Positions 38,520-56,155 of a stretch of DNA of 64,000 nucleotides are shown here, in pieces. The number at the start of each line of letters is the position of its first letter. Position 1 is the first letter of the stretch. The notes under the pieces are model-generated. The model was not told the origin of the DNA. It did no database searches and saw only the letters and a program-made list of their open reading frames with translations. A program made the translations under genes and the position numbers. The stretch is from an uncultured Nitrososphaerota archaeon (GTDB lineage Archaea; Thermoproteota; Methanomethylicia; Culexarchaeales; Culexmicrobiaceae), in NCBI GenBank assembly GCA_964462875.1, contig CAYWZQ010000009.1, positions 3,618 to 67,617 of the forward strand, given 5' to 3'.

Positions 38520-38522
38520 GCT

Positions 38523-39084: not shown

Positions 39085-41445
39085 TCACTTCCTAACTCTA
39101 ATCAACCTTTCAAGCAATGTTGGATCTACTGAGGGCTTCTCCCAAGGCTTCCATCCTACCTTCTTTAAGTAATCGAGTATCTCAAACTTATGCGTTATGG
39201 GTATATCTGCCTCAGTTCTAATGAACAAATGTAAATCAGGTGGTAAAGTCCCGTAGAACTTCCTGTAAAGCTCGACGTAGTGTGTTAGTTTAATCATTCT
39301 ACCCTTAGTTGTATCGTTAGGTCTAATACATAGCTTAGCAGCCATAACCATAGCCTCTTCCTTAGTCTCAGCAACATATACTAAGTGCTCAGGTGTTGGC
39401 CCAATCCAAATCTTCCTACCAGTCCTAGCATCATACGCCTTGAAGCTCTCAATGTCTTCCTTCCTACCTAGATATAATCTCCTATATTTTGCTCCCTGAG
39501 GCCCTAAAATCACTGGAACACCTAACCTATTGAAGCCAGTCGCTATTGCAGCAGCTTTCTGCGACATTGCGCCCCAAGCAATTCCGCAAGCACCAACTCT
39601 ATTCAAAATATAATCAGCTATCTCCTCGTAGTTTGCTCTCAGTTTCCTTCTAGCGAAAATGCTTGCTATCTTAATGCATGCACCCGATATATGCGCATTA
39701 GCTACGCATGAACCAACGTTAACTAGTCCTCCAGCCTCAAAGCCTCCGGAATACTCTTCATAAAGTGTTGTTCCCTCCTCGGTTCTGTACTCAGCAATAC
39801 TCATTGCCGCACATCCGGAGGCCACAACAATATACCTCCGCCTCAAAAATTCTTCAGCCATAATTGCTACATCTCTACCTCCATTTGGATAGTTGGCGCA
39901 CCCAACAAATGCAATAACTCCCGGAATTTCACCCAACACTATTGGTGAACCAACCTCTCTAATTTCAGTGTCAAGTATTGGGCCTCTACCAGCCCTAATC
40001 TTATACTTGGAGGTCTTAATTTTATACTCGGCTGAAGCAGTAATTAGGCTCAATATGGGAATTCCCCTTGGACAAGCACTCTCACATCTCGCACAGCCCA
40101 AGCAAACATCGTGTATTTCAGCTAACTTATCAAGCACACCGCTTTTAGCAGCATATACGGCTTCATCTATTCTCAAGTCTATTGGACAGTTCCTCCTGCA
40201 ACTACCACACTTGACGCACTTAGAAGCTATTTTAATAAGCTCTTCTCTGCTCGGTATTGTTTTAAACTTCTTTCTTAAAGGAGCAACCCTCATGGCAGTT
40301 AGTACGGCTACTGCAGCTGCTTTCTCTAAATCTAGAATTGCAACTCCAGGAACCTTGTAATTGGCAAGCATATCAACTATTTCCTCAACAGGCCTATCAG
40401 TTACATCCTCTAGTCCTCTTAAAGCCTTATTTGAAACAGATATCAGTGGGGCCTTAACTCTCTGAGCTTCATGTAGAATTGACGTGTGAATACATTGCTC
40501 ATCAGTCACTATTACATCTGCAGCCCCAGATCTTATAAACCTCAATTGATAGGATATTGGGCCGACAATCTTAGTTGACTTATTGTACCTCACAATATCA
40601 TGAGCCGTACAGCATAGACCAGCTACCTCAACCACTTCTCCAGGCTCACCTAAACCGCTCTTCTCTAAGAAATCAACTATGTCTATGGCATTGGTTACAT
40701 TATGTCCAATCACCAGGACTAAAGGCTTAGTCACATCCACACAGCCTAATCCTATTTCAACCAGTGGGGCCTCGGGATCTCCCTTTGGGAAGTTGAAAGC
40801 TACAATTTGAGCCATATCAGCGATCTCCATAGCTACATGGTCAAGCATTCCCAGATGTAGAGCTTTGGACTCAAAATCTAGGTAATCGCTTTCCTGACCT
40901 ATGTGCGAAGCTGCAAGTGTTTGAACTATTTGCTCCTCAACATAATTAAGGGCGAAAGCTAAGTCCCCCAAAGTTCTCGGCTTTATTCCCACTACAAGCC
41001 TCGTATGAGGCATCTCCACGTGAATTTCCCCGCCCAAGTCAATGGGATAATCCTCACCATACCTCTCAATTAATGTTTCAACGAGCTCTCTTGCATGACT
41101 CGCATGCGTGGCTGCACCAATAGCACAAGCCAACATCACAATTCTTGCCTGTTGAACATCCAATGTTAAACCACAAGCACCCCTCTTACCAGCAGTTAAA
41201 TCACATTTACCATAAGTGCACAGACAACAGAGATCACAGAATGGCATGTAAAATGGCCTATAACGCTTCAGCAGCTTCATGTCCCATGACCTCAAAGTCT
41301 CAATTCTTGGCATTGGCGTTGGCCCCATTGGCTCCCACTCTTCCTCCATTGCAAGCCTTCCAATTGCAATCTCCACATCTTCTAATGACACAGCTTCAGT
41401 TTTAAGGGATTTAAAGGAAAACTTCAGCGGTCCCTTCTCACCCAT
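39085..41445 (-). CDS. cdhA: Carbon monoxide dehydrogenase catalytic alpha subunit (ACDS)
   Basis: 786 aa. N-terminal Cys-rich B/D-cluster region, internal 2x[4Fe-4S] insert 'CVKCGSCRRNCP...CLGCARCESACP', and a C-cluster-type domain. Confidence 0.85.
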   Translation of the reverse strand: MGEKGPLKFSFKSLKTEAVSLEDVEIAIGRLAMEEEWEPMGPTPMPRIETLRSWDMKLLKRYRPFYMPFCDLCCLCTYGKCDLTAGKRGACGLTLDVQQARIVMLACAIGAATHASHARELVETLIERYGEDYPIDLGGEIHVEMPHTRLVVGIKPRTLGDLAFALNYVEEQIVQTLAASHIGQESDYLDFESKALHLGMLDHVAMEIADMAQIVAFNFPKGDPEAPLVEIGLGCVDVTKPLVLVIGHNVTNAIDIVDFLEKSGLGEPGEVVEVAGLCCTAHDIVRYNKSTKIVGPISYQLRFIRSGAADVIVTDEQCIHTSILHEAQRVKAPLISVSNKALRGLEDVTDRPVEEIVDMLANYKVPGVAILDLEKAAAVAVLTAMRVAPLRKKFKTIPSREELIKIASKCVKCGSCRRNCPIDLRIDEAVYAAKSGVLDKLAEIHDVCLGCARCESACPRGIPILSLITASAEYKIKTSKYKIRAGRGPILDTEIREVGSPIVLGEIPGVIAFVGCANYPNGGRDVAIMAEEFLRRRYIVVASGCAAMSIAEYRTEEGTTLYEEYSGGFEAGGLVNVGSCVANAHISGACIKIASIFARRKLRANYEEIADYILNRVGACGIAWGAMSQKAAAIATGFNRLGVPVILGPQGAKYRRLYLGRKEDIESFKAYDARTGRKIWIGPTPEHLVYVAETKEEAMVMAAKLCIRPNDTTKGRMIKLTHYVELYRKFYGTLPPDLHLFIRTEADIPITHKFEILDYLKKVGWKPWEKPSVDPTLLERLIRVRK

Positions 41446-41551
41446 GCTCTCACCAGATTATATTTTCAGCTATAATGTGTTTGAAGTGGATTTAAGAGTT
41501 ATTCTAAGATTATTAATGAATTGACCCTAACTATGAAAGGCTTCTGATCAA

Positions 41552-42355
41552 TTAGACATTCATTTTAGGAAGCAGCCTCTCAATAATTTTGCGCGTAGCT
41601 TTGACTGCTATAGAGTTATCTGGAAGCTCTATTATGGGCAGGCCCTTTAGATCGTAATCGATTACCATTGGGTCCTCAGGTATTGAACCTATTACTTTGA
41701 AATTCCTCTTAATAAGCTCTTCAATTACTCTAGGGGCTAATACTCTTGTAATCTTATTGATCACGACGTAGATCTCTCTAACTCCGATTTCAAGTTTAAG
41801 TGCCAAATCTCTAATTCGCTCAGCAGTAACTATGCTACGAATACTAGGATCAACCACTATTAGCATGAAATCGACATTTCTAGTAGTTCTCCTACTCAAA
41901 TGCTCCAATCCAGCCTCACAGTCAATTATTACGAAGTCATAGCTTCTTGCCAGTCTATCAAGAACATGCCTCAATAGATGATTTACATAGCAATAGCAGC
42001 CAGGCCCCTCAGGTCTACCCATAGCTATGAAATCAAATTTATCAGCTTCAACTAATACATCCTCATAAAGTGCAGACTCAAAAAGCAAGTCTTTGCCACC
42101 GCCAGATGTATAATTGAGAAACTCCTCTCTCAAATCACCTAAAGTTTTTTTAAATTCTATGCCAAGAGCCCTGTTCAGATTAGTATTGGAATCAGCATCC
42201 ACAACTAAAAAAGACTTATCACCAAAAATTTCCATTAAATGCCTTAAAATTAATGTAGCCACAAGAGTTTTCCCAGTACCACCCTTACCAGTTACCGTAA
42301 TAGTGACCGTCAAACTTACACCACCAACAAAGTAGTTTGCAACTACTATAAGCAT
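41552..42355 (-). CDS. CooC/AcsF-family nickel-insertion ATPase, second paralog, upstream of cdhA
   Basis: P-loop 'VTGKGGTGKT' and the 'GCYCYVNH' CxC motif. Confidence 0.8.
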   Translation of the reverse strand: MLIVVANYFVGGVSLTVTITVTGKGGTGKTLVATLILRHLMEIFGDKSFLVVDADSNTNLNRALGIEFKKTLGDLREEFLNYTSGGGKDLLFESALYEDVLVEADKFDFIAMGRPEGPGCYCYVNHLLRHVLDRLARSYDFVIIDCEAGLEHLSRRTTRNVDFMLIVVDPSIRSIVTAERIRDLALKLEIGVREIYVVINKITRVLAPRVIEELIKRNFKVIGSIPEDPMVIDYDLKGLPIIELPDNSIAVKATRKIIERLLPKMNV

Positions 42356-42370: not shown

Positions 42371-43399
42371 TTAGGCCTCAACTGGAACAATAAAATCTTC
42401 AGGATGACCTCCTACAACAAGCCTATAATAAACCGTTCCATCACCCATCAAAACTTGCTCAACCTTCCCCTCAGCAACAATGGTATCACCCTTAAAAGCG
42501 CACTCGCAAAAACGTCCCCTAAATGAAAACACTTCACTTATCGGGACATTAGCCCCAGAAATCACTGAAACATCATCAACAGAGTAACTGCAAGGAGTAA
42601 ATATTGCATTAGAATCATCAATTACCACTGCTTTTATTCTAGCCCTACCAATAGACATATAAATCCTATCACCATATCTCTCATTAACTTCACATGGCTC
42701 CTTAACCAGTCTAATAAAGTAATCTCTACCACTAAACTTACCCTGCAACACCTTTCTTGCTTCAACTACCATAAAAGTTCTTAGCGGCATATAAGTGTCC
42801 TTAACCCTGAACTTATAAAGTCCAATTAAATCCCTCGTGGTATATCTAGCAATGGAATTGGCGTGAAAAACACCACTTCTAAGTGCGTGATATAAGTTCC
42901 AGCCAGACTTGTATCCATAAACTATGAGATCTAAATCAGAATGCTTACCATGAAGTCCAACAAGTATTGAACCGGACACTCCAATACTGCTTAATGGGAC
43001 ACCTGATAGATCATGTAACTCTTCAGCAAATGTAACTGCAGACTTCTCAATTTCATCTAGTAAATACCTCCCAGAAACCATTTCATTTAACCGTTCTCTT
43101 GGCTTGTAAACCTTCTTTATTAGCTCTGTGGGAACAGACTGCATTTCAACATTAAATACAGCATCATAATGAAGATACTGAGGGTAGAAGTTTTTAAGAA
43201 ATAGATATCTTTCAGTGAGCGAGTAAAGCTTGACATATTTAACATTACCTCTAACTCTATTCCCCCTTGGTGATGGAACGTATCTCACGAAAGCGACCAC
43301 CCTATTTGGTGGATGAGTTAATCCCTTAACATCAAATATTAGGGATTCTATGGTTTCTATGAAATCTCCCTCTATGATGTTCACACCTCTCACCAGCAC
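42371..43399 (-). CDS. Uncharacterised protein with a Pol-beta-type nucleotidyltransferase signature (paralog A), first gene of the cooC-cdhABCDE string
   Basis: 'GVSGSILVGLHGKHSDLDLIVYG' fits the pattern GS x9-13 DhDh. The N-terminal domain 'DFIETIESLIFDVKGLTHPPNRVVAFVRYVP' is shared with 54163..55239. Confidence 0.6.
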   Translation of the reverse strand: MLVRGVNIIEGDFIETIESLIFDVKGLTHPPNRVVAFVRYVPSPRGNRVRGNVKYVKLYSLTERYLFLKNFYPQYLHYDAVFNVEMQSVPTELIKKVYKPRERLNEMVSGRYLLDEIEKSAVTFAEELHDLSGVPLSSIGVSGSILVGLHGKHSDLDLIVYGYKSGWNLYHALRSGVFHANSIARYTTRDLIGLYKFRVKDTYMPLRTFMVVEARKVLQGKFSGRDYFIRLVKEPCEVNERYGDRIYMSIGRARIKAVVIDDSNAIFTPCSYSVDDVSVISGANVPISEVFSFRGRFCECAFKGDTIVAEGKVEQVLMGDGTVYYRLVVGGHPEDFIVPVEA

Positions 43400-43522
43400 G
43401 AATCAGTTACTAGGATAACTGGCAGTAGGAAGTATTAATTCGTAACGCTTAAATTGAATTTACAATTTTACATTTCTGTGTAGATAAGTACAGTTAATAG
43501 TATTAGATAGGAGGAAAAAGCA

Positions 43523-44281
43523 TTGAAAGTATCAGCAAAAACGATTTCTCTAATTGCAGTATTTGCAGGACTCTACTACGTGTTATCAACAATACCCGGC
43601 CCACCCATTGTGGGGGGCACTGGCAGCGTTAAAGTAATTCTTGCAGGCTTAGCAACAGTATATGGCTTACTCTTTGGACCAATACTTGGAGCCATCACAG
43701 CATTTCTAGGCGCAATACTTGCATGGTGGCTTCCACCAGGTGTACCGGAAATCTTCGGGTTATTAATGACAATGTGCCCATTAATGGGTGCAATTGTAGC
43801 TGGAGGGCTATCAACCACCAGGTTCAGGGGGAAGGGCTGGATTATATCGTTAATAGTAATGACAGTACTTATCCTTGGATGGTACTTAACATGGGTTGGT
43901 TCAAGAGCTCCACTATACCCCATAATGCACATTGTAGCGCTCATACTAATAGTAGCATTGAGGGAAAAGATATCCGACCTCATTTGGAGCACTAATAAAA
44001 TGAAAATGACATTAGGAACTATTATTGCTAGCTATGCTGGAGCAATGGCAGATCACATGACTGGGAATTTAATATTCATTAATTCCCTTGGAATAATAAT
44101 ACCTTGGAGTGCAATTGAAAAATGGCTTGAAAAAATGGGCTTACCAGATGTACCAGCACTATTCATGTACATGCTACCAATATCGGCTATTGAAAGAGCA
44201 TTAATGATCTTAGCTGCAGTCATTATTGGAACAGCACTAATTGCTACACTGCCTAGAACAGGGTTAATAGAGAAACCCTAG
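43523..44281 (+). CDS. Polytopic membrane protein, possibly an ECF-type S component (substrate unknown)
   Basis: 252 aa with about 6 TM helices and a Gly/Pro-rich loop 'IPGPPIVGGTGSVKV'. Confidence 0.45.
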   Translation: MKVSAKTISLIAVFAGLYYVLSTIPGPPIVGGTGSVKVILAGLATVYGLLFGPILGAITAFLGAILAWWLPPGVPEIFGLLMTMCPLMGAIVAGGLSTTRFRGKGWIISLIVMTVLILGWYLTWVGSRAPLYPIMHIVALILIVALREKISDLIWSTNKMKMTLGTIIASYAGAMADHMTGNLIFINSLGIIIPWSAIEKWLEKMGLPDVPALFMYMLPISAIERALMILAAVIIGTALIATLPRTGLIEKP

Positions 44282-44373
44282 ACAAAACACCACAATTCAT
44301 CATTTTTCATGTTAAATTTAATATTAAAAATTGAAATTAAAATTGATTAGTAGAGGAGAAGAGCAGTGGAAGA

Positions 44374-45819
44374 ATGATCGAGGAAACACGTGTATGGCCA
44401 TGGATCATTCCATTACCAATTGAAGGCGAAAAGCACTATAAGGTGCTACTATCAGTGTTTAAGTCTAAGGCGACACTGGACATTTTAAAGAACATTAAGT
44501 TAAATGGAAAAACCTATCAGTCAGACTTAATTAGAAAGCTTCCATACTCAAATAAAACAGTCATCTGCAAATTGAGGGAGCTAGTTAGAAGTAAGATATT
44601 GGAGCAAGGAGTTGAAAGAAAGATTATTAGAGGAAGAAGCGTTCGCGTGAATTGGTTTAAACCGACACCTCTTGGAAGATGGCTAATAACATTTCTAACT
44701 CCGCCGAGCGAAATGAAGCCTGAAAATATTGAGAAAACCTTAAGCCAATTATTCAAATTATACATCAAAAGTATAACTAGGCTATGTGCAAATTATGGAT
44801 TTGACATATCCGAGTACCATCAAGAACTAGAGGAAGAGTACATAAAGGAACTTATTCAAATAGCTGCTAGAAGACGAGGAAAAGAAGAAATTGATGCTAC
44901 GGTTGTCGGCTCAATTTCACTAGATATTACCGTTTCATTCCACGAAATGCCGAAAACGGATGCAGCTGCAATAGCAAAAATAGTAAAAGTAGCTTCAGGA
45001 GGATCCGCCGCTAATGTGGCAATTGCATTAACTAGACTTGGACTCAAGACATCCTTTATGGGTAAAGTTGGAACTGATGAAGCAAGTAGAATAGCATTAA
45101 CTGAACTAGCAAGTGAAGGCGTCGATATATCGCCAGTAAAAGTTGTTAGAGGAGCAACTTTACCAAAATCAATAGTTTTCATTGAAAAGAGTACTAAGAG
45201 AATATTAACAATAACCGATGAGAAAGCACTATCACTAAGTTCACCGGAAGAAGTAGATTGGGAAGCCATAGACTTAAGTAAAATCATTTACATAGGCGAG
45301 ACATATACCGAAATAGCCTCCATAATAGCATCTTATGCTAAGGCTAAAGGTAAAATTGTGATCTACAGACTATTAACTCCATACGCAAAAATGGGGCTAA
45401 GTAAACTTAAGGGCGTACTCGCAAATTCAAATTACGTAATAATGAACGAAGTTAGCTGGAAGATTTTGAGAGAAACATCAAAAAACATAGTGACACCCCA
45501 CAGCTTAATACTTAATTATGGCGTAGATGGATTGATAATTACTAGAGGAGGAAAAGGAGTCACAGGGTATACTGGTAGAGGAAAACTTTCACTTCCAGCG
45601 ATAAAAATTGGAGATGTAGTGGACACAACTGGAGCAGGCGATGCATTCTCAGCTGCATTTATTTGGGCGTTAATTGGAGGCTCAAGCTTTGAAAAAGCAG
45701 TTAAGATAGCGAATATAGCTGCAGCAATGTCCACAACAAAGCTTGGAGCTAAGGATAGCATGCCAACAATTAATGAGCTTAGAAAGCTACTTGCCTCAAG
45801 ACCTTCCCTTCAGGTATAA
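44374..45819 (+). CDS. Fusion of an N-terminal winged-helix DNA-binding domain with a PfkB/ribokinase-family sugar or nucleoside kinase
   Basis: C-terminal 'VDTTGAGDAFSAAFIWALIGG' PfkB motif and N-terminal 'GGSAANVAIALTRLG'. The first ~170 aa, 'YQSDLIRKLPYSNKTVICKLRELVRSKILEQG', are wHTH-like. Confidence 0.75.
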   Translation: MIEETRVWPWIIPLPIEGEKHYKVLLSVFKSKATLDILKNIKLNGKTYQSDLIRKLPYSNKTVICKLRELVRSKILEQGVERKIIRGRSVRVNWFKPTPLGRWLITFLTPPSEMKPENIEKTLSQLFKLYIKSITRLCANYGFDISEYHQELEEEYIKELIQIAARRRGKEEIDATVVGSISLDITVSFHEMPKTDAAAIAKIVKVASGGSAANVAIALTRLGLKTSFMGKVGTDEASRIALTELASEGVDISPVKVVRGATLPKSIVFIEKSTKRILTITDEKALSLSSPEEVDWEAIDLSKIIYIGETYTEIASIIASYAKAKGKIVIYRLLTPYAKMGLSKLKGVLANSNYVIMNEVSWKILRETSKNIVTPHSLILNYGVDGLIITRGGKGVTGYTGRGKLSLPAIKIGDVVDTTGAGDAFSAAFIWALIGGSSFEKAVKIANIAAAMSTTKLGAKDSMPTINELRKLLASRPSLQV

Positions 45820-46954
45820 GAAGCGAAAGACATGCTGCGAGAAGAAATAGGCATGAAATCGAAAGCATGTAAAGCCCATAGCCATAATTATCAATTAGAA
45901 AGCCGCCGAGAAAGGCACCGATAGAAGCACCAATAAAACCCGTAGCATTACCAATACCAAGCGAAAGACCCTTAACCTCCTCCGGCGAACATTCAACAGT
46001 ATAAGCAATTATTGGGGCCGCACCAGTTGCACTCATTAAACCAAAGAGAAAAATGGAGAAAGCCAATAGCTCAGATGGAGCATAATGTAGCATCAATGTC
46101 GAGACCGAAGCTAGAATCATAGATACTATTAGAGCACTTTTATATCCCAGCTTATCCGTAAGAAAGCCTCCCAAGAGATGCCCGAAAAATCCCATAAGAG
46201 AAGAAGCAGAAGCCATAAAGGCAGCATGCATCACAGAAAGATGCTTAACTTCAACCAAGTATAATGAGAGAAACGTTGCCAGACTCATAGAAGACATCAA
46301 TGAAATTGCCGGAATGATATAGGCCAGTATTAAGGGTCTATGAAAACACCTTAGCACAGATAATCCTTTAATCGAAGACCGCTTTAATCTCTGCGGCTCA
46401 ATTGCAGAGAAAAGAAAGGCAAGCGAAACCAAAATGCCCGGTACAGACAAGGCAGTAAATGAGCTCCTCCAGCCATAGTGTGCAGCTAAATAGACTGCAA
46501 TAACAGGCGCTATAGCGGAGCCAAACCTGGAACCTGACATGAAAAAGCCTACGGCTCTTCCTCTACTTTCCACCTCATAAGCATCGCTCAGCATTGAAAT
46601 CATGGGTGCATAATAGAATCCAGCAGCAAAACCGAAAAGCAGTCTCACGATAAGAAGCTGAACGTATGAAGCAACCATTCCACAAAGAAGCGTTGTAATA
46701 GACGATAACAATATGCATAGAAAAACTATCAGCTTTCTACTGAAAATATCGCTTAACAAGCCAGCTGGCACTTGCATTAGCGCATACGATATAAAGAAGG
46801 CCGACATGAGCATTCCAGCTTCAAAGCTACGTATACCCAAATCAGCAACCATGATCGGTAGTAGTGGAGGAAGCATCATTCTATAAACATAGTTTAGAGA
46901 CCAGCCGGAGAAGCCGAGCAGCAGAAGCTTGATGCGACCCCTCATATAAAACAC
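45779..46954 (-). CDS. MFS-type membrane transporter
   Basis: 391 aa, 12 predicted TM segments, MFS-like 'GLLSDIFSRK' loop. Confidence 0.7.
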   Translation of the reverse strand: MFYMRGRIKLLLLGFSGWSLNYVYRMMLPPLLPIMVADLGIRSFEAGMLMSAFFISYALMQVPAGLLSDIFSRKLIVFLCILLSSITTLLCGMVASYVQLLIVRLLFGFAAGFYYAPMISMLSDAYEVESRGRAVGFFMSGSRFGSAIAPVIAVYLAAHYGWRSSFTALSVPGILVSLAFLFSAIEPQRLKRSSIKGLSVLRCFHRPLILAYIIPAISLMSSMSLATFLSLYLVEVKHLSVMHAAFMASASSLMGFFGHLLGGFLTDKLGYKSALIVSMILASVSTLMLHYAPSELLAFSIFLFGLMSATGAAPIIAYTVECSPEEVKGLSLGIGNATGFIGASIGAFLGGFLIDNYGYGLYMLSISCLFLLAACLSLLIPEGKVLRQVAF

Positions 46955-46987
46955 ATAAAAAGGGTATTTGACAATTAACTGCGAAAG

Positions 46988-47902
46988 CTATTGACTTGAT
47001 GCCAGTTCAATGGCCTCCTTAGTGTACAACTTATACTTTCCAAGCCTGCCACCATAGTTAGCGGCAGTTATTTTCCTGACACCCTTAATCTTGGCAGCTG
47101 CAAGTATAGCCACACCCATTGCTCTAAGAACCCTCTTGACATCAAGGCCATTGATAACTATCTCGTAAACGCAATTAACATCTGGTGGAACTTTAGTGTC
47201 TGGAACCTTGTCCTTAATTGTTGGGCAGAAGAAGTGATTCGTCGTAGCAATCAGCTTTGGATACTTTAGGGAACCAACTTTCGAACCCGACCTAACAATT
47301 CCACCAGGGAAAGGTAAAATAACACCCTTAACCTGCTCACGAACCGCTTTAACAGCGGCCTCCGCAGCTTTTAACCCAGCCTCTAAGTCCTCAGCAAGAA
47401 TAAGCAAATTGCCTCCAGCTACAGCCTTAACAACACCAACTTTATCCTCTATTAAAAAGTCTCCCTCCATAACAGGGATTCTATACATAACTTTACCATA
47501 CAGCTCTTCTCTCGTTTCAAAGCCGTCTCCAAACTTGGATAATGGTGCACCAACATAGATAAACCGTTTTGCTCTCGGCAATCCATTAAATACTGCTGTC
47601 GTGGGACATGTGAGAACACATTGTCCTATCCTACTCAGCACTTGCATTTTGAGCTCCGGTATCGACCTATGGTAAATTTGTATGAGAGCACCCGGCCTTC
47701 CATCAGGAGTTTCTTCTAGCGGCACCAAGCCCTCCACGCCTGCCTCTGCTGGTGCCGCAATTATGGAAGTTGCAAAGCCAGTTGCCACTTGAGCTGCAGT
47801 CAAAGCCCACTTCTCGTTTATAGCTGTTATGAGAATTCTAGTAGCATACATTGGAAAGGCTTCAGCAAATGTTTCCTCGATTTCAACGCCATTAATTTTC
47901 AT
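46988..47902 (-). CDS. ftr: Formylmethanofuran:tetrahydromethanopterin formyltransferase
   Basis: 'INGVEIEETFAEAF', 'RILITAINEKWA', 'ATGFATSIIAAPAEAG', 'ETPDGRPG' and 'IGQCVLTCPTTAVF' match Ftr block for block. Confidence 0.9.
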   Translation of the reverse strand: MKINGVEIEETFAEAFPMYATRILITAINEKWALTAAQVATGFATSIIAAPAEAGVEGLVPLEETPDGRPGALIQIYHRSIPELKMQVLSRIGQCVLTCPTTAVFNGLPRAKRFIYVGAPLSKFGDGFETREELYGKVMYRIPVMEGDFLIEDKVGVVKAVAGGNLLILAEDLEAGLKAAEAAVKAVREQVKGVILPFPGGIVRSGSKVGSLKYPKLIATTNHFFCPTIKDKVPDTKVPPDVNCVYEIVINGLDVKRVLRAMGVAILAAAKIKGVRKITAANYGGRLGKYKLYTKEAIELASSQ

Positions 47903-48027
47903 AAACTACACCTCCTCAGAGCGATTATTACTCGAAAAATCTACCTATTTATATGCTACACCCACTCAAGCTTCTCTTAAAGCTTAAATCAATAACTCAT
48001 TATAGACTTTAGCGCGGGTGATTTATT

Positions 48028-48867
48028 GTGAGTGAAAGGGTTGTAAAGATTAGCATTATCAAAGTCGGGTGCATTGGCTGCAGTCCACTACTAGATTACA
48101 TGCTTGATGAAAGAGCTGACAGAACGGACATAGATGTGCGGGTTTTTGGTTCCGGATCTAAGCTCGATGAAGCAAGAGCTGAAGATGTTGCCAAAAGAGC
48201 TCTAGAATTCAATCCAGATCTAGTGATTATATCGACTCCAAATGCAGCATTACCAGGACCAGCCAAGGCAAGAAACATTGTAGCTGAAAAGGGAATTCCA
48301 TGCATTATAGTGACAGATGCACCTTCAAAGAAGATCGCTAAGGAACTAAAGGAAAAGGGATTTGGCTACATAATAGTTGAAGCAGATTCAATGCTAGGTG
48401 CTAGAAGGGAGTTTCTGGATCCAATTGAAATGACGATCTACAATGCGGACCTAATTAAAGTTCTTTCAGTCACCGGTGCATTTCGAGTAGTCATTGAAGC
48501 CATAGACAAGGTCATTGAAGCCATTAAGAAAGGTGAAAAACCAGAACTCCCTGCAATCACTGTTAATAGGGACACTGCAATCAAAGCAGCTGAATTTAAT
48601 AATCCATATGCTAAAGCCAAGGCCATGGCCGCATGGGAAATGAGCAAACGAGTAGCCGATTTAACTACAAAGGCCTGCTTTGTAGTTAAAGAATGGGAAG
48701 TATATACATCCCTATGCGCAGCAGCTCATGAACTAATGAGAGAAGCCGCGAAATTAGCTGATGAAGCCAGAGAAATTGAAAAATATGGTGATTACCTCGT
48801 CAGAAAACCACATAGCAAATCCGGAGCCATACTGAGAAAAGCAAAGTTAATTGAAAAGCCAAAATAG
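48028..48867 (+). CDS. mtd: F420-dependent methylenetetrahydromethanopterin dehydrogenase
   Basis: 'VKISIIKVGCIGCSPLLDYMLDERADR', 'LPGPAKARNI', 'GFGYIIVEADSMLGARREFLDPIEM' and 'KVLSVTGAFRVV' match Mtd. GTG start. Confidence 0.9.
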   Translation: MSERVVKISIIKVGCIGCSPLLDYMLDERADRTDIDVRVFGSGSKLDEARAEDVAKRALEFNPDLVIISTPNAALPGPAKARNIVAEKGIPCIIVTDAPSKKIAKELKEKGFGYIIVEADSMLGARREFLDPIEMTIYNADLIKVLSVTGAFRVVIEAIDKVIEAIKKGEKPELPAITVNRDTAIKAAEFNNPYAKAKAMAAWEMSKRVADLTTKACFVVKEWEVYTSLCAAAHELMREAAKLADEAREIEKYGDYLVRKPHSKSGAILRKAKLIEKPK

Positions 48868-48884
48868 GAGGTGTATAGCTAATC

Positions 48885-50621
48885 ATGGGGACAACAGTTC
48901 AAGTAACCCTAGTTACTGGTAGAACTATTAATCAAGGAACAGCTCTAGATAAAGGAAAACTGCTACCAGAATATTATGAGAAAGTTGCAATAGTTGAGCT
49001 CGATGAAGAAGATATGAAGAAGCTTGGAGCAAAAAACGGAGACAGTGTTGAAGTAGCCACGGAGCATGGAAGAGTAGTAGTGAGAGCTATTAAATCGAGA
49101 TTTAGACACCCGGGAATAGCATTTATGCCCATGGGTCCATGGACAAACATAGTGACGAACCCAAACACCTACGGCTCTGGAATGCCAACATTTAAGGGTG
49201 TAAGAGCCCAGCTCAAAGTCACTGACGAAAAACCCTTAACTCAAATAGAGCTCCTATCCAAAATATATGGACTAGAAGTCCCAGGGGTAAAGGTGGAAGA
49301 GCCTGAGGCTAAAGGTGTAGAGAAAACATTTTCATCAGTTATCTGTAGTTTCTGCGGATGTCTTTGCGATGACTTAGAAGTTAAAGTGAAAGATGGCATT
49401 ATAGTTGAGGTTAAAGGAGCTTGTCCACTCGGATATTCTAAGATAATGCATTATAGGGAAAATCGAATTCTCAAGCCATATATTCGGGATGGAACCAAAT
49501 TTATTGAAGTAACACTCGATGAAGCAGTAAGAAAAGCTGCCGAAATATTAGTTAATGCATCATATCCGCTACTATACGGCTGGAGCTCTACTTCAACTGA
49601 AGCAATAAGACTAGGTGTTGAATTGGCAGAGTTGCTTGGAGGAGTAATGGATAACACAAGCGTAATGTGTCATGGACCAACAATTCTAGGAGTACAGGAA
49701 GCTGGAACTGTTGCTGCAACTCTAGGTCAAATAAGAAACTTTGCAGATTTAATGATTTACTGGGGATGCAACCCATTCCATGCCCATCCAAAGCACCCAG
49801 CAAGATATAGTGCCATGTCAAGAGGATATTACATTAAAAGTAGAGCAGAAAGGAAAATAGTAGTTGTTGATGTAAGAGAAACACCGACAGCTAAAATAGC
49901 AGACCTATTCATTAGAGTTAGACCTGGAGAAGACTTTGAACTCATAAGAGCTCTAAGAATGGCAGTCAATGACATGGACATAGAGGCTGATGAAATTGCA
50001 GGCGTTCAAGTAGAGAAAATTTACGAGTTAGCTGACATTATGAGAACTGCAAAATTCGGCGTACTATTCTTCGGCTTGGGCGTCACCATGACTAGGGGGA
50101 AGGGTAGGAATATTGAGGAAGTCATTAGACTTGTTCAAGATTTAAATAATTGGACTAAGTTCGTGCTCATGCCCATGAGAGGACACTTCAATGTTGTTGG
50201 TGCAAACATGGCCACACTATGGGCAACGGGATTTCCATATGCAGTCGACTTTAGCAAGGGCTATCCAAAACATAATCCTGGAGTAACATCGGCACCAGAC
50301 CTACTCATGGATGGTGACGTTGACGCAGCCCTAATAGTCGCTTCAGACCCAGTAGCACACTTCCCGGCTGAAGCAGTTAAGCATCTAGTGAAAATACCAG
50401 TGATAACTATTGATCCAAAGTGGAATTTAACAAGCCTAATCTCACAAGTTGTAATACCATCGGCATTCGTAGGAATTGAATGCGAAGGAACAGCATACAG
50501 AATGGACAAAGTCGTATTGAGACTGAAAAAACTCGTCGATCCACCTCCAGGAGTCTTGAGTGATGAGGAAATTTTAATGAAGCTTATTAATGAAGTTAAA
50601 AGGTTAAAGGGGGTGGCATGA
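48885..50621 (+). CDS. fwdB: Formylmethanofuran dehydrogenase FwdD-FwdB fusion (molybdopterin/tungstopterin subunit)
   Basis: N-terminal 'VTLVTGRTINQG...MPMGPWTNIVTNPNTYGSGMPTFKG' is FwdD-like. 'VICSFCGCLCDDLEV' onward is FwdB-like. Confidence 0.85.
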   Translation: MGTTVQVTLVTGRTINQGTALDKGKLLPEYYEKVAIVELDEEDMKKLGAKNGDSVEVATEHGRVVVRAIKSRFRHPGIAFMPMGPWTNIVTNPNTYGSGMPTFKGVRAQLKVTDEKPLTQIELLSKIYGLEVPGVKVEEPEAKGVEKTFSSVICSFCGCLCDDLEVKVKDGIIVEVKGACPLGYSKIMHYRENRILKPYIRDGTKFIEVTLDEAVRKAAEILVNASYPLLYGWSSTSTEAIRLGVELAELLGGVMDNTSVMCHGPTILGVQEAGTVAATLGQIRNFADLMIYWGCNPFHAHPKHPARYSAMSRGYYIKSRAERKIVVVDVRETPTAKIADLFIRVRPGEDFELIRALRMAVNDMDIEADEIAGVQVEKIYELADIMRTAKFGVLFFGLGVTMTRGKGRNIEEVIRLVQDLNNWTKFVLMPMRGHFNVVGANMATLWATGFPYAVDFSKGYPKHNPGVTSAPDLLMDGDVDAALIVASDPVAHFPAEAVKHLVKIPVITIDPKWNLTSLISQVVIPSAFVGIECEGTAYRMDKVVLRLKKLVDPPPGVLSDEEILMKLINEVKRLKGVA

Positions 50622-52333
50622 TTCCCAATCAAATACTAATTAAAAATGGTATAGTTTATGACCCAATAAATAAGGTCAATGGAGAAAAAATGGATATTGC
50701 AATTAAAAATGGAAAAATAGTCGAAATAAGCCAAATCGACAAATCAAAAGCCAAAATAATTGATGCTTCAGGGAAAATCGTAATGCCCGGAGGAGTCGAT
50801 TTACACTCACACATTGCGGGCCCCAAGGTCAACCTAGGAAGACTCATGAGACCTGAGGACCACTACGACTACGTGATGAAACTAGTTCCCGGTATAAGGA
50901 GATCAGGTTCAGGCTACACTGTTCCCTCAACAACAATTGCAGGCTATAAGTACGCCGAAATGGGATATACAACAGTAATTGAACCAGCATCCCCACCACT
51001 CAAGAACAGGCACACACACGAAGAACTGGATGACACACCCATAATCGATAAGGCAGTATTCATATTAATGGATTCAAACTGGTTTATTCTCAAGTACCTT
51101 GAAAGCAATGATATTGAAAAGTGCGCAGCCTATGTGGCTTGGCTTCTTGAAGCAACTAAGGGGTATGCCATCAAGCTCGTAGATCCAGGAGTAGCTATTC
51201 CATGGATTAGAGGAAAAGGTTATGGACTGGATTTAGATGATCAAATACCACCATTCAATCTAACACCAAGAGAAATAGTTACGGGTCTCTGCAAAGTTAA
51301 TGAAAAACTCAAACTACCGCATCCAATACATGTCCACTGCAATAAATTGGGCATACCCGGAAACTACACAACAACTCTAAATACAATGAAAGCGGTTTCA
51401 GGTCTAGCAGGTGAAGATAAAGTTGCAATGCATGTAACACATGTCCAGTTCAATAGCTATGGTGGAGTTTCATGGGGAAACTTGAAGAGTAGAGCCGAGG
51501 AAATTGCAAAATATGTTAACTCAGTAAATCACATAACCTTAGATTTAGGCCAAATAATTTTCGGAGAAGCAACTACAATGACAGCTGATGCACCCTTTGA
51601 ATTTGCCCTCTTTCACATGACTAAGTGGAAGTGGGGCGGAGCAGAAGTTGAAGCTGAAGCAGCAGCAGGAATAGTACCGTTTAGGTACAAAGCAAAGAAC
51701 TATGTACATGCCATTCAATGGTGTATTGGACTAGAAGTAGCATTACTCGTTAAAAACCCATGGAAAGTGGTGCTAACAACAGACCACCCAAATGGAGGAC
51801 CATTCCAGAAGTACCCAGAAGTCATAGCATGGCTAATGAGCAGGAAAGCGAGAAGCAAAGTCATAGAAAAGCTAAATAGCAGAGCTTTAAGGGAAGTAGT
51901 TTTACCAAGTATAGAGAGGGAATATGACCTGTATGAAATAGCAATTATAACTAGAGCTGGACCGGCCAAGTTATTGGGATTGGAAAGCAAAGGACACTTA
52001 GGTATTGGAGCTGATGCAGACATAGCTATTTACGATGTAAATCCACTTGAAGTAGACTTATCAGAGAACCCCGAGTTAATAATCAAAGCATTCAGCAAAG
52101 CACTTTACACTATAAAGAATGGAGAAATTGTAGTGAAGAATGGGGAAGTAGTTAAGCACATTTATGGAACAACCTACTATGTGAAAGCCAAAGTAGAGGA
52201 TGAACTTATGAACCAGGTACTGGGTGAGGTGAAGAACAAGTTCAAGGAATGGTACACCGTCAGTTTTGAAAATTATGAAATAAAAGATCATGAAATAAGA
52301 AATCTTAAACCCATAACTGCGGGAGGTGCATAA
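50618..52333 (+). CDS. fwdA: Formylmethanofuran dehydrogenase subunit A (amidohydrolase)
   Basis: 'ILIKNGIVYDPING...IKNGKIVEI' and the 'GGVDLHSHIAGPKVN' metal-binding motif. 571 aa. Confidence 0.85.
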   Translation: MIPNQILIKNGIVYDPINKVNGEKMDIAIKNGKIVEISQIDKSKAKIIDASGKIVMPGGVDLHSHIAGPKVNLGRLMRPEDHYDYVMKLVPGIRRSGSGYTVPSTTIAGYKYAEMGYTTVIEPASPPLKNRHTHEELDDTPIIDKAVFILMDSNWFILKYLESNDIEKCAAYVAWLLEATKGYAIKLVDPGVAIPWIRGKGYGLDLDDQIPPFNLTPREIVTGLCKVNEKLKLPHPIHVHCNKLGIPGNYTTTLNTMKAVSGLAGEDKVAMHVTHVQFNSYGGVSWGNLKSRAEEIAKYVNSVNHITLDLGQIIFGEATTMTADAPFEFALFHMTKWKWGGAEVEAEAAAGIVPFRYKAKNYVHAIQWCIGLEVALLVKNPWKVVLTTDHPNGGPFQKYPEVIAWLMSRKARSKVIEKLNSRALREVVLPSIEREYDLYEIAIITRAGPAKLLGLESKGHLGIGADADIAIYDVNPLEVDLSENPELIIKAFSKALYTIKNGEIVVKNGEVVKHIYGTTYYVKAKVEDELMNQVLGEVKNKFKEWYTVSFENYEIKDHEIRNLKPITAGGA

Positions 52334-53201
52334 AGTGAGCGAAGAACTATGCGAAATCATAATTAAACCTAAAAAAGCATTTAGAGTACCCGTGGACATG
52401 GAACTAATAAAGCCGGAAAACATTGCAGGGAAAACACTAAATGAGTTATTAAATGAATTGACTGTTTATGAAGGTAATAGAGAGAGAAAATTTGGAGAGC
52501 TATTCGATGTTAAAGGAGAGCCAGTAAGTGATGCTAGCAAAATAAGATTGATAATCGAGCCAAGTACTAGAAAGTTGTGGAGCATTGGCATGGGAATGAC
52601 TACCGGAGAAATAGTAGTTAAGGGTGATGCAGGCCACTACATTGGAGCTAAAATGCGCGGCGGAAAAATAGTGATTTATGGAAAAACAGGATCATGGATT
52701 GGCGCCGAGATGAGTGGAGGAACAATAGAAGTTCATGGAGATGCCGGAGACTATGTTGGAGCAAGATTTAGAGGCAAAGGTTCAGAAGCAGGAATGACCG
52801 GCGGGATGATTATCATACACGGTAATGCTGGAGTTGAAGTAGGTAGGGGAATGATTAAGGGTACAATAATGATTTATGGGAGCTGCCTAGAGTTTCTGGG
52901 CGCAAATATGAAGGGAGGATCAATACTAGTTAAGGGCAATTGTCCAGGTAGAGTAGGCTCAGGTATGACGGGAGGTAAAATAGTGATATGCGGACACGTT
53001 AATAGCATACTACCATCATTCTACATAGACGATAAAGTCGACAAGACGAAAGTTAAGGGCAATGTTATTGAGGGGCCATTTTACCTATTCATCGGAGACT
53101 ACATGGCTGCTCCAAAGGTTTATGGAAGGCTATTTATATCAATTCCAAGCAATCCACATTTAAAGAGGTTCTTAGAGCTAATTGAGGAGGTAGAAGCATG
53201 A
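52326..53201 (+). CDS. fwdC: Formylmethanofuran dehydrogenase subunit C
   Basis: Tandem glycine-rich repeats 'GxxxGAxMxGGxIxVxG(D/N)AG', typical of FwdC and the GltB C-terminal domain. Confidence 0.85.
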   Translation: MHKVSEELCEIIIKPKKAFRVPVDMELIKPENIAGKTLNELLNELTVYEGNRERKFGELFDVKGEPVSDASKIRLIIEPSTRKLWSIGMGMTTGEIVVKGDAGHYIGAKMRGGKIVIYGKTGSWIGAEMSGGTIEVHGDAGDYVGARFRGKGSEAGMTGGMIIIHGNAGVEVGRGMIKGTIMIYGSCLEFLGANMKGGSILVKGNCPGRVGSGMTGGKIVICGHVNSILPSFYIDDKVDKTKVKGNVIEGPFYLFIGDYMAAPKVYGRLFISIPSNPHLKRFLELIEEVEA

Positions 53202-54163
53202 TAAGCGTGAATAAAAAGGCAATGAAAATAATTGATGAAATGATCGATAAGGAAGATGAATTGAACATTAAGGTATTGAAAGCAGAGTCAGGAGCAACAA
53301 TAATAGACTGTGGAGTAAATGTTGATGGAGGATTTCTAGCAGGAGTATATGCATCCAAAATATGTCTAGGAGGACTTGGGGAAGTAAACTTATCACATAA
53401 AGTCTACGAGGAAGTAGTATTACCAGTAGTAAATGTATACACGGACCATCCGGTAATAGCATGCATGGCATCCCAATATGCAGGTTGGAGAATAAGTGTT
53501 GGAAAATACTTCGCAATGGGGTCAGGGCCAGCTAGAGCCCTATCTAAAAAGCCAAAATATCTCTATGAGGAAATAGGATATGAAGATATATCAGATGAAG
53601 CAGTAATAGTGCTTGAAGCCTCTAAACTCCCACCAAACGAAGCAGTACTGGAAATAGCTAGCAAGTGTAATGTTAAACCCCAAAACCTATACATTCTAGT
53701 GACACCAACTAGCAGCATTGCAGGCTCAGTACAAATAAGTGCAAGAATAGTTGAAACAGGCATACATAAGCTGCATGAACTAAAATTTGACATCAAGCAC
53801 ATAGTCAATGGTTCAGGTACCTGTCCAATAGCACCAGTACACCCAAACGCTATGATCATGATGGGTAGAACAAATGACATGATACTTTATGCCGGAGAAA
53901 CTACCTACTTGATCAATTATGAAGATGATGAAAAGCTAAGAGAGATAGTAAGAAAGGTCCCATCATGCACATCCAGAGATTATGGGAAACCATTCTATGA
54001 AGTATTTAAGGGATATAATTTTGACTTCTACAAAGTTGATCCACATCTATTCGCTCCAGCAGTAATAAGCGTAACTAATAAGCGCACCGGATTGACGCTC
54101 AAAGCAGGATACGTAAATGTTGAAGTGTTAAAGAAATCGATTGGCTTTGAGAAGTTAGAATAA
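53198..54163 (+). CDS. mch: Methenyltetrahydromethanopterin cyclohydrolase
   Basis: 'SGATIIDCGVNVDGG', 'VNVYTDHPVIACMASQYAGWRISVGKYFAMGSGPARAL', 'YEEIGYED' and 'TSSIAGSVQISARIVETGIHKL' match Mch closely. Confidence 0.9.
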   Translation: MISVNKKAMKIIDEMIDKEDELNIKVLKAESGATIIDCGVNVDGGFLAGVYASKICLGGLGEVNLSHKVYEEVVLPVVNVYTDHPVIACMASQYAGWRISVGKYFAMGSGPARALSKKPKYLYEEIGYEDISDEAVIVLEASKLPPNEAVLEIASKCNVKPQNLYILVTPTSSIAGSVQISARIVETGIHKLHELKFDIKHIVNGSGTCPIAPVHPNAMIMMGRTNDMILYAGETTYLINYEDDEKLREIVRKVPSCTSRDYGKPFYEVFKGYNFDFYKVDPHLFAPAVISVTNKRTGLTLKAGYVNVEVLKKSIGFEKLE

Positions 54164-55239
54164 TGATCGTGAGAAAATTCAGGGATAGGGACTTCATAGA
54201 AACGCGTGAAGGTATGTTCTTTTGCGTTATCGGAAATGTGCATCCAAGGAACAGGATAATATCATACTTAAAGTACGTTCCATGGGAAGTCAAGGGAGCA
54301 AAGAGATTAGGTTGGAGGAGAAATGGAAGAGAATATGGAAGAATTCTACCACATTATAGTGCTCTAGGAGTCCAGAAAGTTAAAGATTTTTTAAAGCACT
54401 TCTTTCCCAATTATGTTTACTTCGATAAATACCTAAACATAGAGATTATAGGTATCCCAGTTAATGAAATAAAAACACATTATAGACCCGAAGTTAGAAT
54501 GCAGGAAATATTGAAGAAATCATCAGATGAACTTGAAGCTGATGTAGCGTTTTTAGCCAGGGAACTTGCGTCAGCAGGGAATATTTCAAAAGCTTATCTG
54601 GGAGTAACGGGTTCAATTCTAATTAAAATTCATAATCCAAAATTTTCAGACATAGACTTGATAGTTTATGGTAGAGAAAATGCATTAAGGATAAAAAATT
54701 CGATTTCAAACTTAATTAATCAAAATAAGAGTTTCAGGCGGCTAGATGAGATAACGAAGAAAAGACTTGCAAAGGAAATTTCGCAAATTCATCCATTAAC
54801 TCTACATGAAGCATACAAGCTAATTAGTGAACGCTGGTATAATGGGTTCTTTAGAGGAAGATTCTTCTCAATTCATCCAGTTAAGCTTGAAAGAGAAGTT
54901 AATGAAATACATGAGCAGAAAATCTATAGGTTCAAGGGCATAGTAACTATTAAATGCAAGGTCGAGGATGCTAGCGAATCCATGTTTCTCCCCTCTAAGT
55001 ACTTGGTTAAGGAAGTAAGGTTCCTTGATGGAAGAGAGGTTAATAATTTGAGAGAGGTCGTTAGCTATGAAGGACTATACTGCGATGCAGCAGCTAATGG
55101 AGATATCATTTATGTTAGAGGTAAACTGGAGGAAGTTAATGACCTTACAACATCCGAGACCTATCATAGAGTTCAAGTGGGCTCATTCGAGGCTAGAGGA
55201 TCGGATTTCATAAAAAATGTAAGGTGGATTAAAGGTTAA
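54163..55239 (+). CDS. Uncharacterised Pol-beta-type nucleotidyltransferase-signature protein (paralog B), between mch and the ATP-grasp ligase
   Basis: 'GVTGSILIKIHNPKFSDIDLIVYG'. N-terminal 'DFIETREGMFFCVIGNVHPRNRIISYLKYVP' is collinear with paralog A. Its ATG overlaps the mch stop (TAATG). Confidence 0.6.
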   Translation: MIVRKFRDRDFIETREGMFFCVIGNVHPRNRIISYLKYVPWEVKGAKRLGWRRNGREYGRILPHYSALGVQKVKDFLKHFFPNYVYFDKYLNIEIIGIPVNEIKTHYRPEVRMQEILKKSSDELEADVAFLARELASAGNISKAYLGVTGSILIKIHNPKFSDIDLIVYGRENALRIKNSISNLINQNKSFRRLDEITKKRLAKEISQIHPLTLHEAYKLISERWYNGFFRGRFFSIHPVKLEREVNEIHEQKIYRFKGIVTIKCKVEDASESMFLPSKYLVKEVRFLDGREVNNLREVVSYEGLYCDAAANGDIIYVRGKLEEVNDLTTSETYHRVQVGSFEARGSDFIKNVRWIKG

Positions 55240-55273: not shown

Positions 55274-56155
55274 ATGATCATTGGAATAGCAACTAGAAAT
55301 CGCAGAGCATGGTGCTCAATCCAATTATTTAAAGCTATAAAGAAAAGAGGGTTGAAGGCAGCTTTTATTGACCTCGCAAAAACCATTGTGGGCATAAATT
55401 GCAACTTCAATATATTATATAAAGGAGTAGATTTAGCTGAAAAATTAAATGCGCTAATCGTAAGACCGCTTGGAGTTGATTCCCCGGAGAGAACATTTTC
55501 AAGACTAAATGTCCTACATAAATTAAATGATTGCGGTGTAAAGGTTATAAATAGTCCTCATGCAATTGAGAAATGCATAGATAAGTTCGCTACACTTCTA
55601 CTCCTCAGTAAACATGGAATACCAGTTCCTCAAACAATAGTCACAGAAGAGATTAGCGGTGGGCTAAAAGGCTTTGAAAATCTCGGCGGAGATGTTGTAG
55701 TAAAACCAATTTTCGGGTCAAGAGGATATGGAATTATTCGAGTAAGCGATTTTGATGTTGCTTTCAGAGTCTTTAAAACACTATATTCAATTGGCAACGT
55801 CATCTACCTGCAGAAATTCATTCCGCATAGAAATAGAGATATCAGAGCTTTTGTTGTTGGAGGAGAAGTAATATCGTCCATGGTAAGAGAGGCTAGTAGC
55901 TGGAAAACCAATATAGCTCAGGGAGCAAAGCCCAGATACATTAAGTTAAGTAGCGAGCTAAGCGAAATAGCAGTGAAGGCAGCAGAAGCGCTGGGATGCG
56001 AAGTTGCAGGAGTCGATATTTTGGTGAGTGAAAATGGGGAATATTATGTAACAGAGATAAATAGCATGCCCAACTGGCAGGGACTGCAATCTGTTACCCC
56101 ATTTAATATAGCTGAGAAAATAATAGAATATATTGTTTACAGCATTATGAAGTAG
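55274..56155 (+). CDS. RimK-family ATP-grasp ligase, likely tetrahydromethanopterin:alpha-L-glutamate ligase (MptN), or else CofF-like
   Basis: ATP-grasp fold with 'GDVVVKPIFGSRGYGI' and 'GVDILVSENGEYYVTEINSMPNW'. Lies in the operon with the H4MPT-dependent enzymes. Confidence 0.7.
   Translation: MIIGIATRNRRAWCSIQLFKAIKKRGLKAAFIDLAKTIVGINCNFNILYKGVDLAEKLNALIVRPLGVDSPERTFSRLNVLHKLNDCGVKVINSPHAIEKCIDKFATLLLLSKHGIPVPQTIVTEEISGGLKGFENLGGDVVVKPIFGSRGYGIIRVSDFDVAFRVFKTLYSIGNVIYLQKFIPHRNRDIRAFVVGGEVISSMVREASSWKTNIAQGAKPRYIKLSSELSEIAVKAAEALGCEVAGVDILVSENGEYYVTEINSMPNWQGLQSVTPFNIAEKIIEYIVYSIMK

Follow-up and report, generated by a model that had tools for sequence, protein, structure and literature searches.

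What do two related proteins with a nucleotidyltransferase fold contribute to an archaeal gene island for one-carbon (C1) metabolism? The question is raised by a stretch of 64,000 nucleotides, here called the window, from an uncultured Nitrososphaerota archaeon (assembly GCA_964462875.1, contig CAYWZQ010000009.1, positions 3,618 to 67,617 of the forward strand). A first reading, made without database searches (the sequence-only reading), had described two paralogous open reading frames (ORFs), which we call A and B, one in each C1 operon. It had suggested a maturation or cofactor role in tetrahydromethanopterin (H4MPT), molybdopterin or corrinoid metabolism, or in enzyme activation. Both ORFs lie where that reading had placed them. 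They are full-length paralogs, alignable end to end with 33% identity (E 1e-47), and the relationship extends beyond the N-terminal domain. From gene context and a gene fusion we consider it likely that the family of A and B acts in the biosynthesis of the H4MPT-type C1 carrier. Among the roles offered earlier, H4MPT metabolism is therefore the one that gained support, while molybdopterin, corrinoid metabolism and enzyme activation found no specific support.

H4MPT is the C1 carrier of methanogenesis, of anaerobic methane oxidation and of the archaeal Wood-Ljungdahl pathway. In its side chain an alpha-ribosyl 5-phosphate is joined to 2-hydroxyglutarate by a phosphodiester. To our knowledge, no genes have been assigned to several steps of the pathway, including side-chain assembly, and we know of none for the enzymes of ribosylation and hydroxyglutarate attachment.

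Gene context of the family

The role in H4MPT biosynthesis is argued from operons shared with MptA, MptH, DmrX and MptG, from a CitG-like neighbor and from a fusion to HPPK. At six Asgard loci the gene order is DUF1464-DmrX-MptH-MptA-A-B, and the Methanomethylicia operon reads DUF1464-DUF447-MptG-like-MptA-DmrX-MptH-aminotransferase-A. The order in Vulcanisaeta is MptA, MptE-like, Ftr, FwdDB, FwdA, FwdC, Mch, RimK ligase, B, CitG-like, MfnD-like, MfnB, MfnE, Hydantoinase_A and Fae, with an overlap of 14 nt between B and the CitG-like gene. The gene fusion joins HPPK (PF01288, E 3e-40) to an A-type member in a single protein, P0315 (locus L090, 5626-7143), and is followed on its 3' side by a gene for a 175-aa flavoprotein and then by an MptH-like gene. 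Non-orthologous replacement of HPPK by the family was set aside, since a genuine HPPK is the fusion partner and MptE-like genes occur together with the family. The genes around P0315 (MacB/FtsX, GntR-aminotransferase) look bacterial and may reflect a transfer of the family into Bacteria.

Every ORF up to 3 kb away from a family member entered an unlabelled clustering, and the clusters were annotated afterwards. The most frequent neighbor was a CitG-like triphosphoribosyl transferase (PF01874, E 5.5e-63), found at 25 of 82 related loci and directly adjoining at no fewer than 17. It was followed by an ECF-S-like membrane protein (15 loci, beside A or the CitG-like gene), Ftr (13 loci), a DmrX-type dihydromethanopterin reductase (11 loci), and, at 10 loci each, an MptN-like ligase that adjoins B, an MptH-type dihydropteroate-synthase-like protein and the GTP cyclohydrolase MptA. 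MobA was counted at 9 loci, MfnB, Mch and CooT at 8 each, DUF447 at 7, and a CofE-like ligase and an MfnE-like kinase at 6 each. DUF1464, MptE-like and MptG-like (GHMP family) proteins, FwdA, FwdC and MobB were also recurrent. The sequence-only reading had allowed for a family that is broadly distributed and unlinked to C1 genes; instead, the enrichment was steep. Labelled C1, H4MPT and methanofuran genes accounted for 32% of the ORFs up to 1 kb away, for 24% between 1 and 3 kb and for about 10% at larger distances, and genes of the H4MPT-biosynthesis type fell from 19% within 1 kb to 1.7% beyond 6 kb. H4MPT-linked C1 genes had already been placed in Thermoproteales, Ignisphaera and Bathyarchaeota (PMC5020050).

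Several other proteins recur in these islands. DUF1464, DUF447 and an unannotated 156-aa protein lie inside H4MPT operons that hold A or B (L093 801-2533; L057, L061, L064, L065, L074, L083; L025 7477-8133; L001 5615-6082) and are candidates for other missing H4MPT steps, such as the reduction of the ribofuranosyl to the ribitol moiety. C1/H4MPT islands repeatedly contain a PfkB-family kinase of about 465-481 aa (L086 5102-6499; L041, L013, L014, L016, L045); the 170-aa N-terminal extension of this kinase gave no Pfam match. The ECF-S-like protein, whose relatives match PF07155 weakly (e.g. L001 6253-6945, L086 6602-9849), stands on a Thermofilum contig together with a full ECF module of two ATP-binding cassette (ABC) ATPase domains and CbiQ, and may import a pterin or a cofactor precursor. 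In Asgard archaea, a gene for a TiaS_TCKD-domain protein lies about 2.7 kb 3' of the A-B pair (L057 13697-14845, with equivalents at L061, L064, L065 and L074); its proximity is probably synteny kept among close relatives and not a functional link.

In the window, A heads the cooC-cdh string, with a gap of 15 nt to cooC, and B is coupled to mch and precedes the MptN-like ligase, as had been described (Table 1). The sequence-only reading had seen meaning in this distribution of one paralog to each branch of the Wood-Ljungdahl pathway. Over the 82 loci, however, A and B are immediate neighbors at 53 (A then B in tandem at 28, convergent at 20, divergent at 5). B stands alone within 10 kb at 17 loci, two further paralogs, C and/or D, are also there at 9, and A and B are both present and not adjacent at 3. 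The C and D paralogs of Bathyarchaeia repeat the A-then-B order as D then C. The loci nearest to the window in layout (L021 and L023) read Mch > B > A < CooC > CdhA. A-type genes stand beside cdh at these two loci, at L095 and in the window, and the orientation of A and cooC varies, being co-directional in the window and divergent in L021 and L023. Given the adjacency at 53 loci and the order at L021 and L023, the window shows a split and rearranged pair: it is an island of the L021/L023 type in which B and A were pulled apart and A was inverted to face cooC-cdh. The presence of one paralog per branch is thus a local rearrangement.

Table 1. Positions of A, B, their domains and motifs, and the adjacent genes in the window
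Feature	Position	Strand	Remarks
cooC, cdhA, cdhB, cdhC, cdhD, cdhE	34194..42355	-	downstream of A, co-directional
ORF-A, A-type family member	42371..43399	-	342 aa, GTG start; three domains
Catalytic signature of A	42929..42982	-	G140-V-S-G-S144 ... S154-D155-L-D157
ECF-S-like membrane protein	43523..44281	+	divergent from A, 123 bp between
PfkB-family kinase	44374..45819	+	170-aa N-terminal extension without family assignment
ftr	46988..47902	-	formylmethanofuran:H4MPT formyltransferase
mtd, fwdD-B fusion, fwdA, fwdC	48028..53201	+	upstream part of the operon shared with mch and B
mch	53198..54163	+	methenyl-H4MPT cyclohydrolase; stop overlaps the B start ATG (TAATG)
ORF-B, B-type family member	54163..55239	+	358 aa; three domains as in A plus B-specific insertion
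N-terminal family-specific domain of B	54163..54492	+	about residues 1-110; invariant F20, V22, G24
Catalytic signature of B	54601..54657	+	G147-V-T-G-S151 ... S162-D163-I-D165
C-terminal OB-fold domain of B	54913..55236	+	about residues 251-358; G320, K321, E323 almost invariant
MptN-like RimK-family alpha-L-glutamate ligase	55274..56155	+	35 nt 3' of B

Four genes separate A from the fwd operon, encoding the ECF-S-like protein, the PfkB-type kinase, a major facilitator superfamily (MFS) transporter and Ftr. The RimK-family ligase 3' of B has MptN as its top NCBIfam match (E 6e-82), at 275 bits and below the equivalog cut-off of 350 bits. Within the fwd operon, fwdD and fwdB appear to be fused into one ORF (48885-50621, + strand), in which the Molydop_binding domain precedes the Molybdopterin domain; Vulcanisaeta and Thermofilum loci show this fusion too. 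Positions 25821-33800 hold a Mer-like luciferase-family gene, a gene for a small Fe-S protein, an HdrA/MvhD-like fusion (30151-32520) and a polyferredoxin gene, and indicate that the C1 island reaches well upstream of the cdh operon. A second cooC paralog, 33% identical to the first, is found at 27187-27996. Further upstream, at 23086-25828 (+), a homolog of the CofE-like gamma-glutamyl ligases (PF01996) precedes two DUF166 genes in tandem. The CofE-like gene adjoins the MptN-like ligase and B at Ignisphaera loci and Ftr at other loci.

Domain architecture and distribution

Members of the family begin with a beta domain peculiar to them, continue with a nucleotidyltransferase core of the Pol-beta type and end in an oligonucleotide/oligosaccharide-binding (OB) fold, where a beta-rich domain had been noticed earlier. 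The N-terminal domain of A carries EGDFIET..LIFDVKGLTHPP. That of B has an insertion of its own (W.R.G..YGRILP.YSA) and includes a small SH3/Sm-like barrel, with no close structural relative. The proposed Pol-beta signature was confirmed: the hG[GS] loop with a D-x-[DE] pair 9-13 residues on is present in A (GVSGS...SDLD) and in B (GVTGS...SDID), and the core has the alpha-beta-alpha-beta-alpha-beta fold of the superfamily. Structure comparison relates this core to CutA, GLD2, Cid1 and Pol lambda, and the OB fold most closely to SSB, the MCM N-terminal domain and the anticodon-binding domains of tRNA synthetases.

Conservation was counted in 161 family members from the related loci (subfamilies A-D, B numbering). 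G147, S151, D163 and D165 are each kept in all 161, and the homologous columns of A likewise; a loss of the motif in orthologs, which had been considered as an outcome, is not what we observed. Besides the catalytic residues, H27 is kept in 157 and P28 in 159 of these relatives, and the further acidic residues E245 and E323, candidates for the third catalytic carboxylate that the superfamily carries on a following strand, in 153 and 160, respectively. Judged by their motifs, all subfamilies look catalytically competent.

The sequence-only reading could not place either protein in a characterized family, and our searches agree with it. Neither A nor B reaches any family cut-off in NCBIfam and Pfam. 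For Pfam NTP_transf_2 (PF01909; threshold 21 bits) A scored 20.0 bits and B 19.8 bits, with a match that spans just about 40-60 of some 350 residues; some homologs exceed the threshold (best E 5e-6). PF01909 was matched in 30 of 31 family members and PF18765 (Polbeta) in 16 of 31. No TiaS_TCKD, CCA-adding or poly(A)-polymerase family came out above threshold, a PDB sequence search with A and B returned nothing relevant, and Foldseek against PDB gave no whole-chain match. We could retrieve no paper that describes this nucleotidyltransferase family or ties it to methanopterin. The family represents an architecture new to the Pol-beta nucleotidyltransferase superfamily.

Three homolog searches in a collection of 5.8 billion proteins returned more than 1,000 relatives each, and among 1.84 billion cluster representatives a HMMER scan picked out 1,650 clusters, of which 595 had E up to 1e-30. 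Named homologs were all archaeal among the best 80-150 matches listed, and databases label the relatives "hypothetical protein" or "predicted nucleotidyltransferase". In Thermoproteota the family occurs in Ignisphaera, Thermofilum, Vulcanisaeta, Desulfurococcaceae, Methanomethylicia, Culexarchaeum and metagenome-assembled genomes (MAGs) of Sulfolobales. Korarchaeota, Bathyarchaeia, Nitrososphaerota MAGs and Baldrarchaeota also hold it, as do Hel-, Frey-, Jord-, Odin- and Hodarchaeota among the Asgard archaea. Proteins of Methanomethylicota MAGs, with 60% identity, are closest to A and B of the window.

A scan of one genome per GTDB species yielded 80 loci, in which stretches of up to 21 kb were read. 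Clustering of the members at related loci gave four subfamilies (A, n=64; B, n=82; C, n=9; D, n=6), with C and D confined to Bathyarchaeia. There the second pair, D then C, is 25-30% identical to A and B, has intact catalytic motifs and sits between or beside A and B (L035 1922-4572; L024 7798-9915; L043, L059, L062, L079), which hints at further transfer reactions. L078, labelled 'Thermococci', is a 1.5-kb contig with an ordinary B-type gene and was dropped as uninformative. L032 (JAHECH010000689.1), a 3-kb contig binned as 'Deltaproteobacteria bacterium', holds A, B and Ftr in a typical archaeal layout and is probably a mis-binned archaeal contig.

The proposed reaction and its alternatives

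For the specific reaction we favor, tentatively and with less than even confidence, the formation of the side-chain phosphodiester in a relay analogous to that of CitG and CitX. The CitG-like enzyme would use ATP to load the pterin-aminophenyl-ribitol intermediate, at its ribitol hydroxyl, with a 5-triphospho-alpha-D-ribosyl group, adenine being the leaving group. A/B would then bind the triphosphate like a nucleotide, via the GS loop and two Asp-bound metals, and have the hydroxyl of (S)-2-hydroxyglutarate, or of a lineage-specific acceptor, attack the alpha-phosphate with release of pyrophosphate. The adjoining MptN-like ligase would finally add glutamate to the hydroxyglutarate. Since all catalytic residues are kept in both paralogs, A and B could form a heteromer with both subunits active, or be separate enzymes for successive or alternative transfers.

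Ligases of the MptN-like family attach glutamate to the alpha-hydroxyglutarate part of H4MPT (PMC8141765). Methylotrophic bacteria have an island of mch, a RimK-type ligase gene (orf5) and a CitG-like gene (orf7) without such a nucleotidyltransferase (PMC3615186; gene table in PMC11533326), and they make dephospho-H4MPT, which is without exactly the phosphate and the hydroxyglutarate (PMC8141765, PMC6193120). A more extended version, in which A/B and the CitG-like protein supply both the alpha-ribosylation and the phosphodiester coupling to 2-hydroxyglutarate and the extra C/D pair of Bathyarchaeia builds further side-chain variants in TACK (Thaumarchaeota, Aigarchaeota, Crenarchaeota, Korarchaeota) and Asgard archaea, seems rather unlikely to us as a whole.

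Several observations weigh against the relay. Classical euryarchaeal methanogens make phospho-hydroxyglutaryl H4MPT, yet none of them was found among about 360 listed homologs or at the 80 genome loci, and a homolog search from a D-type paralog that was aimed at euryarchaeal relatives found Bathyarchaeia only, among the matches listed. If the family is truly absent from methanogens, another enzyme does the step there, or the A/B product is a side chain specific to TACK and Asgard archaea. In White's work with cell extracts, the ribosyl donor was reportedly phosphoribosyl pyrophosphate (PRPP) rather than ATP; ATP is said to have been required for the hydroxyglutarate step. The operon of the HPPK fusion, the flavoprotein and the MptH-like gene holds no CitG-like gene, and could point to an earlier, core step. 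MfnB and MfnE, which are methanofuran genes, are frequent neighbors too. Finally, when the family alignment was compared with E. coli CitX by hhalign, the probability was 0.3 and no sequence similarity was detectable; on this result we dropped membership of A/B in the CitX family and kept the functional analogy.

That A/B act in H4MPT biosynthesis at a different step is possible, if somewhat doubtful. Candidate reactions are an ATP-dependent adenylylation of the phenolic hydroxyl on the way from ribofuranosyl-hydroxybenzene phosphate to ribofuranosyl-aminobenzene phosphate, an adenylylation of the ribose 5-phosphate before hydroxyglutarate attack, and a RelA-like pyrophosphoryl transfer on a pterin or ribosyl intermediate. 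The gene-context evidence applies to these as it does to the relay, and the HPPK fusion with its compact operon would place the enzyme near the condensation of pterin and arylamine and not at the late side chain. In Methanomethylicia the gene immediately upstream of A encodes an aminotransferase, and one is also found close to the fusion gene. However, the most frequent neighbor is the CitG-like gene, which is translationally coupled to the nucleotidyltransferase gene in Vulcanisaeta, and the next most specific partner of B is the MptN-like ligase, whose target is the hydroxyglutarate moiety (PMC8141765). Moreover, the bacteria that make dephospho-H4MPT need the early steps, and yet their mch-orf5-orf7 island is without such a nucleotidyltransferase (PMC3615186, PMC11533326).

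A role in methanofuran biosynthesis, for instance in its side chain, is improbable. At Ignisphaera, Desulfurococcaceae and Thermofilum loci, MfnB comes after B, and MfnE, an MfnD-like ATP-grasp_3 protein, an Orf17-like His_biosynth protein and Hydantoinase_A are encoded near B. The bacterial RimK-type ligase Orf5 acts on methylofuran, and for the methanofuran side chain no enzymes are known (PMC8141765). The HPPK fusion and the DmrX-MptH-MptA-A-B operons are nonetheless specific to pterins, and the proximity of Mfn genes does not discriminate, since H4MPT and methanofuran genes are routinely intermixed in A/B islands. Furthermore, we know of no ribose, phosphate or phosphodiester in the methanofuran structure on which an enzyme of the nucleotidyltransferase type would act.

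It is very improbable that A/B are nucleic-acid nucleotidyltransferases that tail or modify RNA or tRNA, with an OB fold that binds RNA or DNA and a coincidental C1 context. The structural likenesses of the OB fold and of the core would fit such a role. Against it stand the steep and specific neighborhood enrichment seen in Thermoproteota, Bathyarchaeia and Asgard archaea alike, membership in H4MPT operons and the HPPK fusion, which are hard to reconcile with it, and the lack of an above-threshold match to the tRNA- and poly(A)-related families named above. OB folds, moreover, bind small anions too.

Least probable of all is a function in maturation or activation, with A serving carbon monoxide dehydrogenase/acetyl-CoA synthase (CODH/ACS) and B serving formylmethanofuran dehydrogenase together with molybdopterin or corrinoid metabolism: A does stand beside cooC-cdh at four loci including the window, and MobA, MobB and CooT recur near the A-B pair, but A and B usually adjoin each other and are not divided one per enzyme operon, MobA already provides the guanylyltransferase for the molybdenum cofactor, HPPK as the fusion partner is neither a metal-centre nor a molybdopterin protein, and a CODH/ACS maturation factor A was rejected because its orientation to cooC is not conserved and it normally pairs with B.

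With the relay as our working proposal, two "hypothetical proteins" would become a specific enzyme candidate for long-missing steps of methanopterin biosynthesis, whose reaction we infer. The CitG-like protein would be its defined partner and the MptN-like ligase its defined follow-on enzyme, and cultured sources exist in Vulcanisaeta, Thermofilum and Ignisphaera. As far as we can tell, the pathway assignment of the family has not been reported before. The family would serve as a marker for the synthesis of H4MPT-type cofactors in Bathyarchaeia, Asgard and other uncultured archaea, and the A/B and C/D sets of paralogs hint at side-chain variants that differ from the methanogen cofactor.

Comparison with known systems

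Within the Pol-beta-like superfamily, A and B can be compared with minimal nucleotidyltransferases, aminoglycoside nucleotidyltransferases, CutA and Cid1. An assignment to nucleotidyltransferases of MNT/HEPN-type toxin-antitoxin or defence systems was rejected, as there were no PADLOC matches and no HEPN-like protein among the recurrent neighbors. TiaS, the tRNA-Ile2 agmatidine synthetase, also archaeal and ATP-using, is similar in that its catalytic domain is followed by an OB-fold domain.

The CofC/CofD system of coenzyme F420 resembles the proposed chemistry in that a nucleotide-activated intermediate leads to the phosphodiester of a 2-hydroxy-acid in the side chain and glutamate ligases act afterwards. 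In F420 synthesis CofC guanylylates phospholactate, which CofD then transfers. CofE-like and RimK-like genes both occur in A/B islands. CofC and CofD differ from A/B in protein fold and in activation logic, and no homolog of either was seen adjoining A/B.

The closer comparison is with CitG and CitX of citrate lyase, and with MdcB and MdcG, the equivalent system of malonate decarboxylase. A CitG-family gene is the top neighbor of the family, and the archaeal CitG-like protein aligns over its full length with E. coli CitG (25% identity, E 1e-5), which by sequence identifies it as a true CitG homolog. No CitX or MdcG Pfam match was obtained at E up to 5 in 31 members, and no CitD, CitE, CitF or Mdc genes (acyl-carrier-protein, lyase, decarboxylase) were among the recurrent neighbors. 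A and B are twice the size of CitX, with extra N-terminal and OB domains, and the proposed acceptor is a small hydroxy-acid, whereas in the citrate lyase system it is a protein serine. Order and coupling are shared: in Vulcanisaeta B is followed by the CitG-like gene with the 14-nt overlap, in E. coli citX is followed by citG with an overlap of 26 nt. The chemistry proposed for A/B would likewise take the CitX form: a hydroxyl would attack an alpha-linked 5-triphosphoribosyl donor, pyrophosphate would be lost and a phosphodiester would result. If this is true, A/B would be Pol-beta-fold enzymes that take a triphosphoribosylated cofactor intermediate as the 'nucleotide' donor and a small hydroxy-acid as the acceptor, and the relay would carry the prosthetic-group logic of CitG/CitX from protein modification to the assembly of a small-molecule cofactor.

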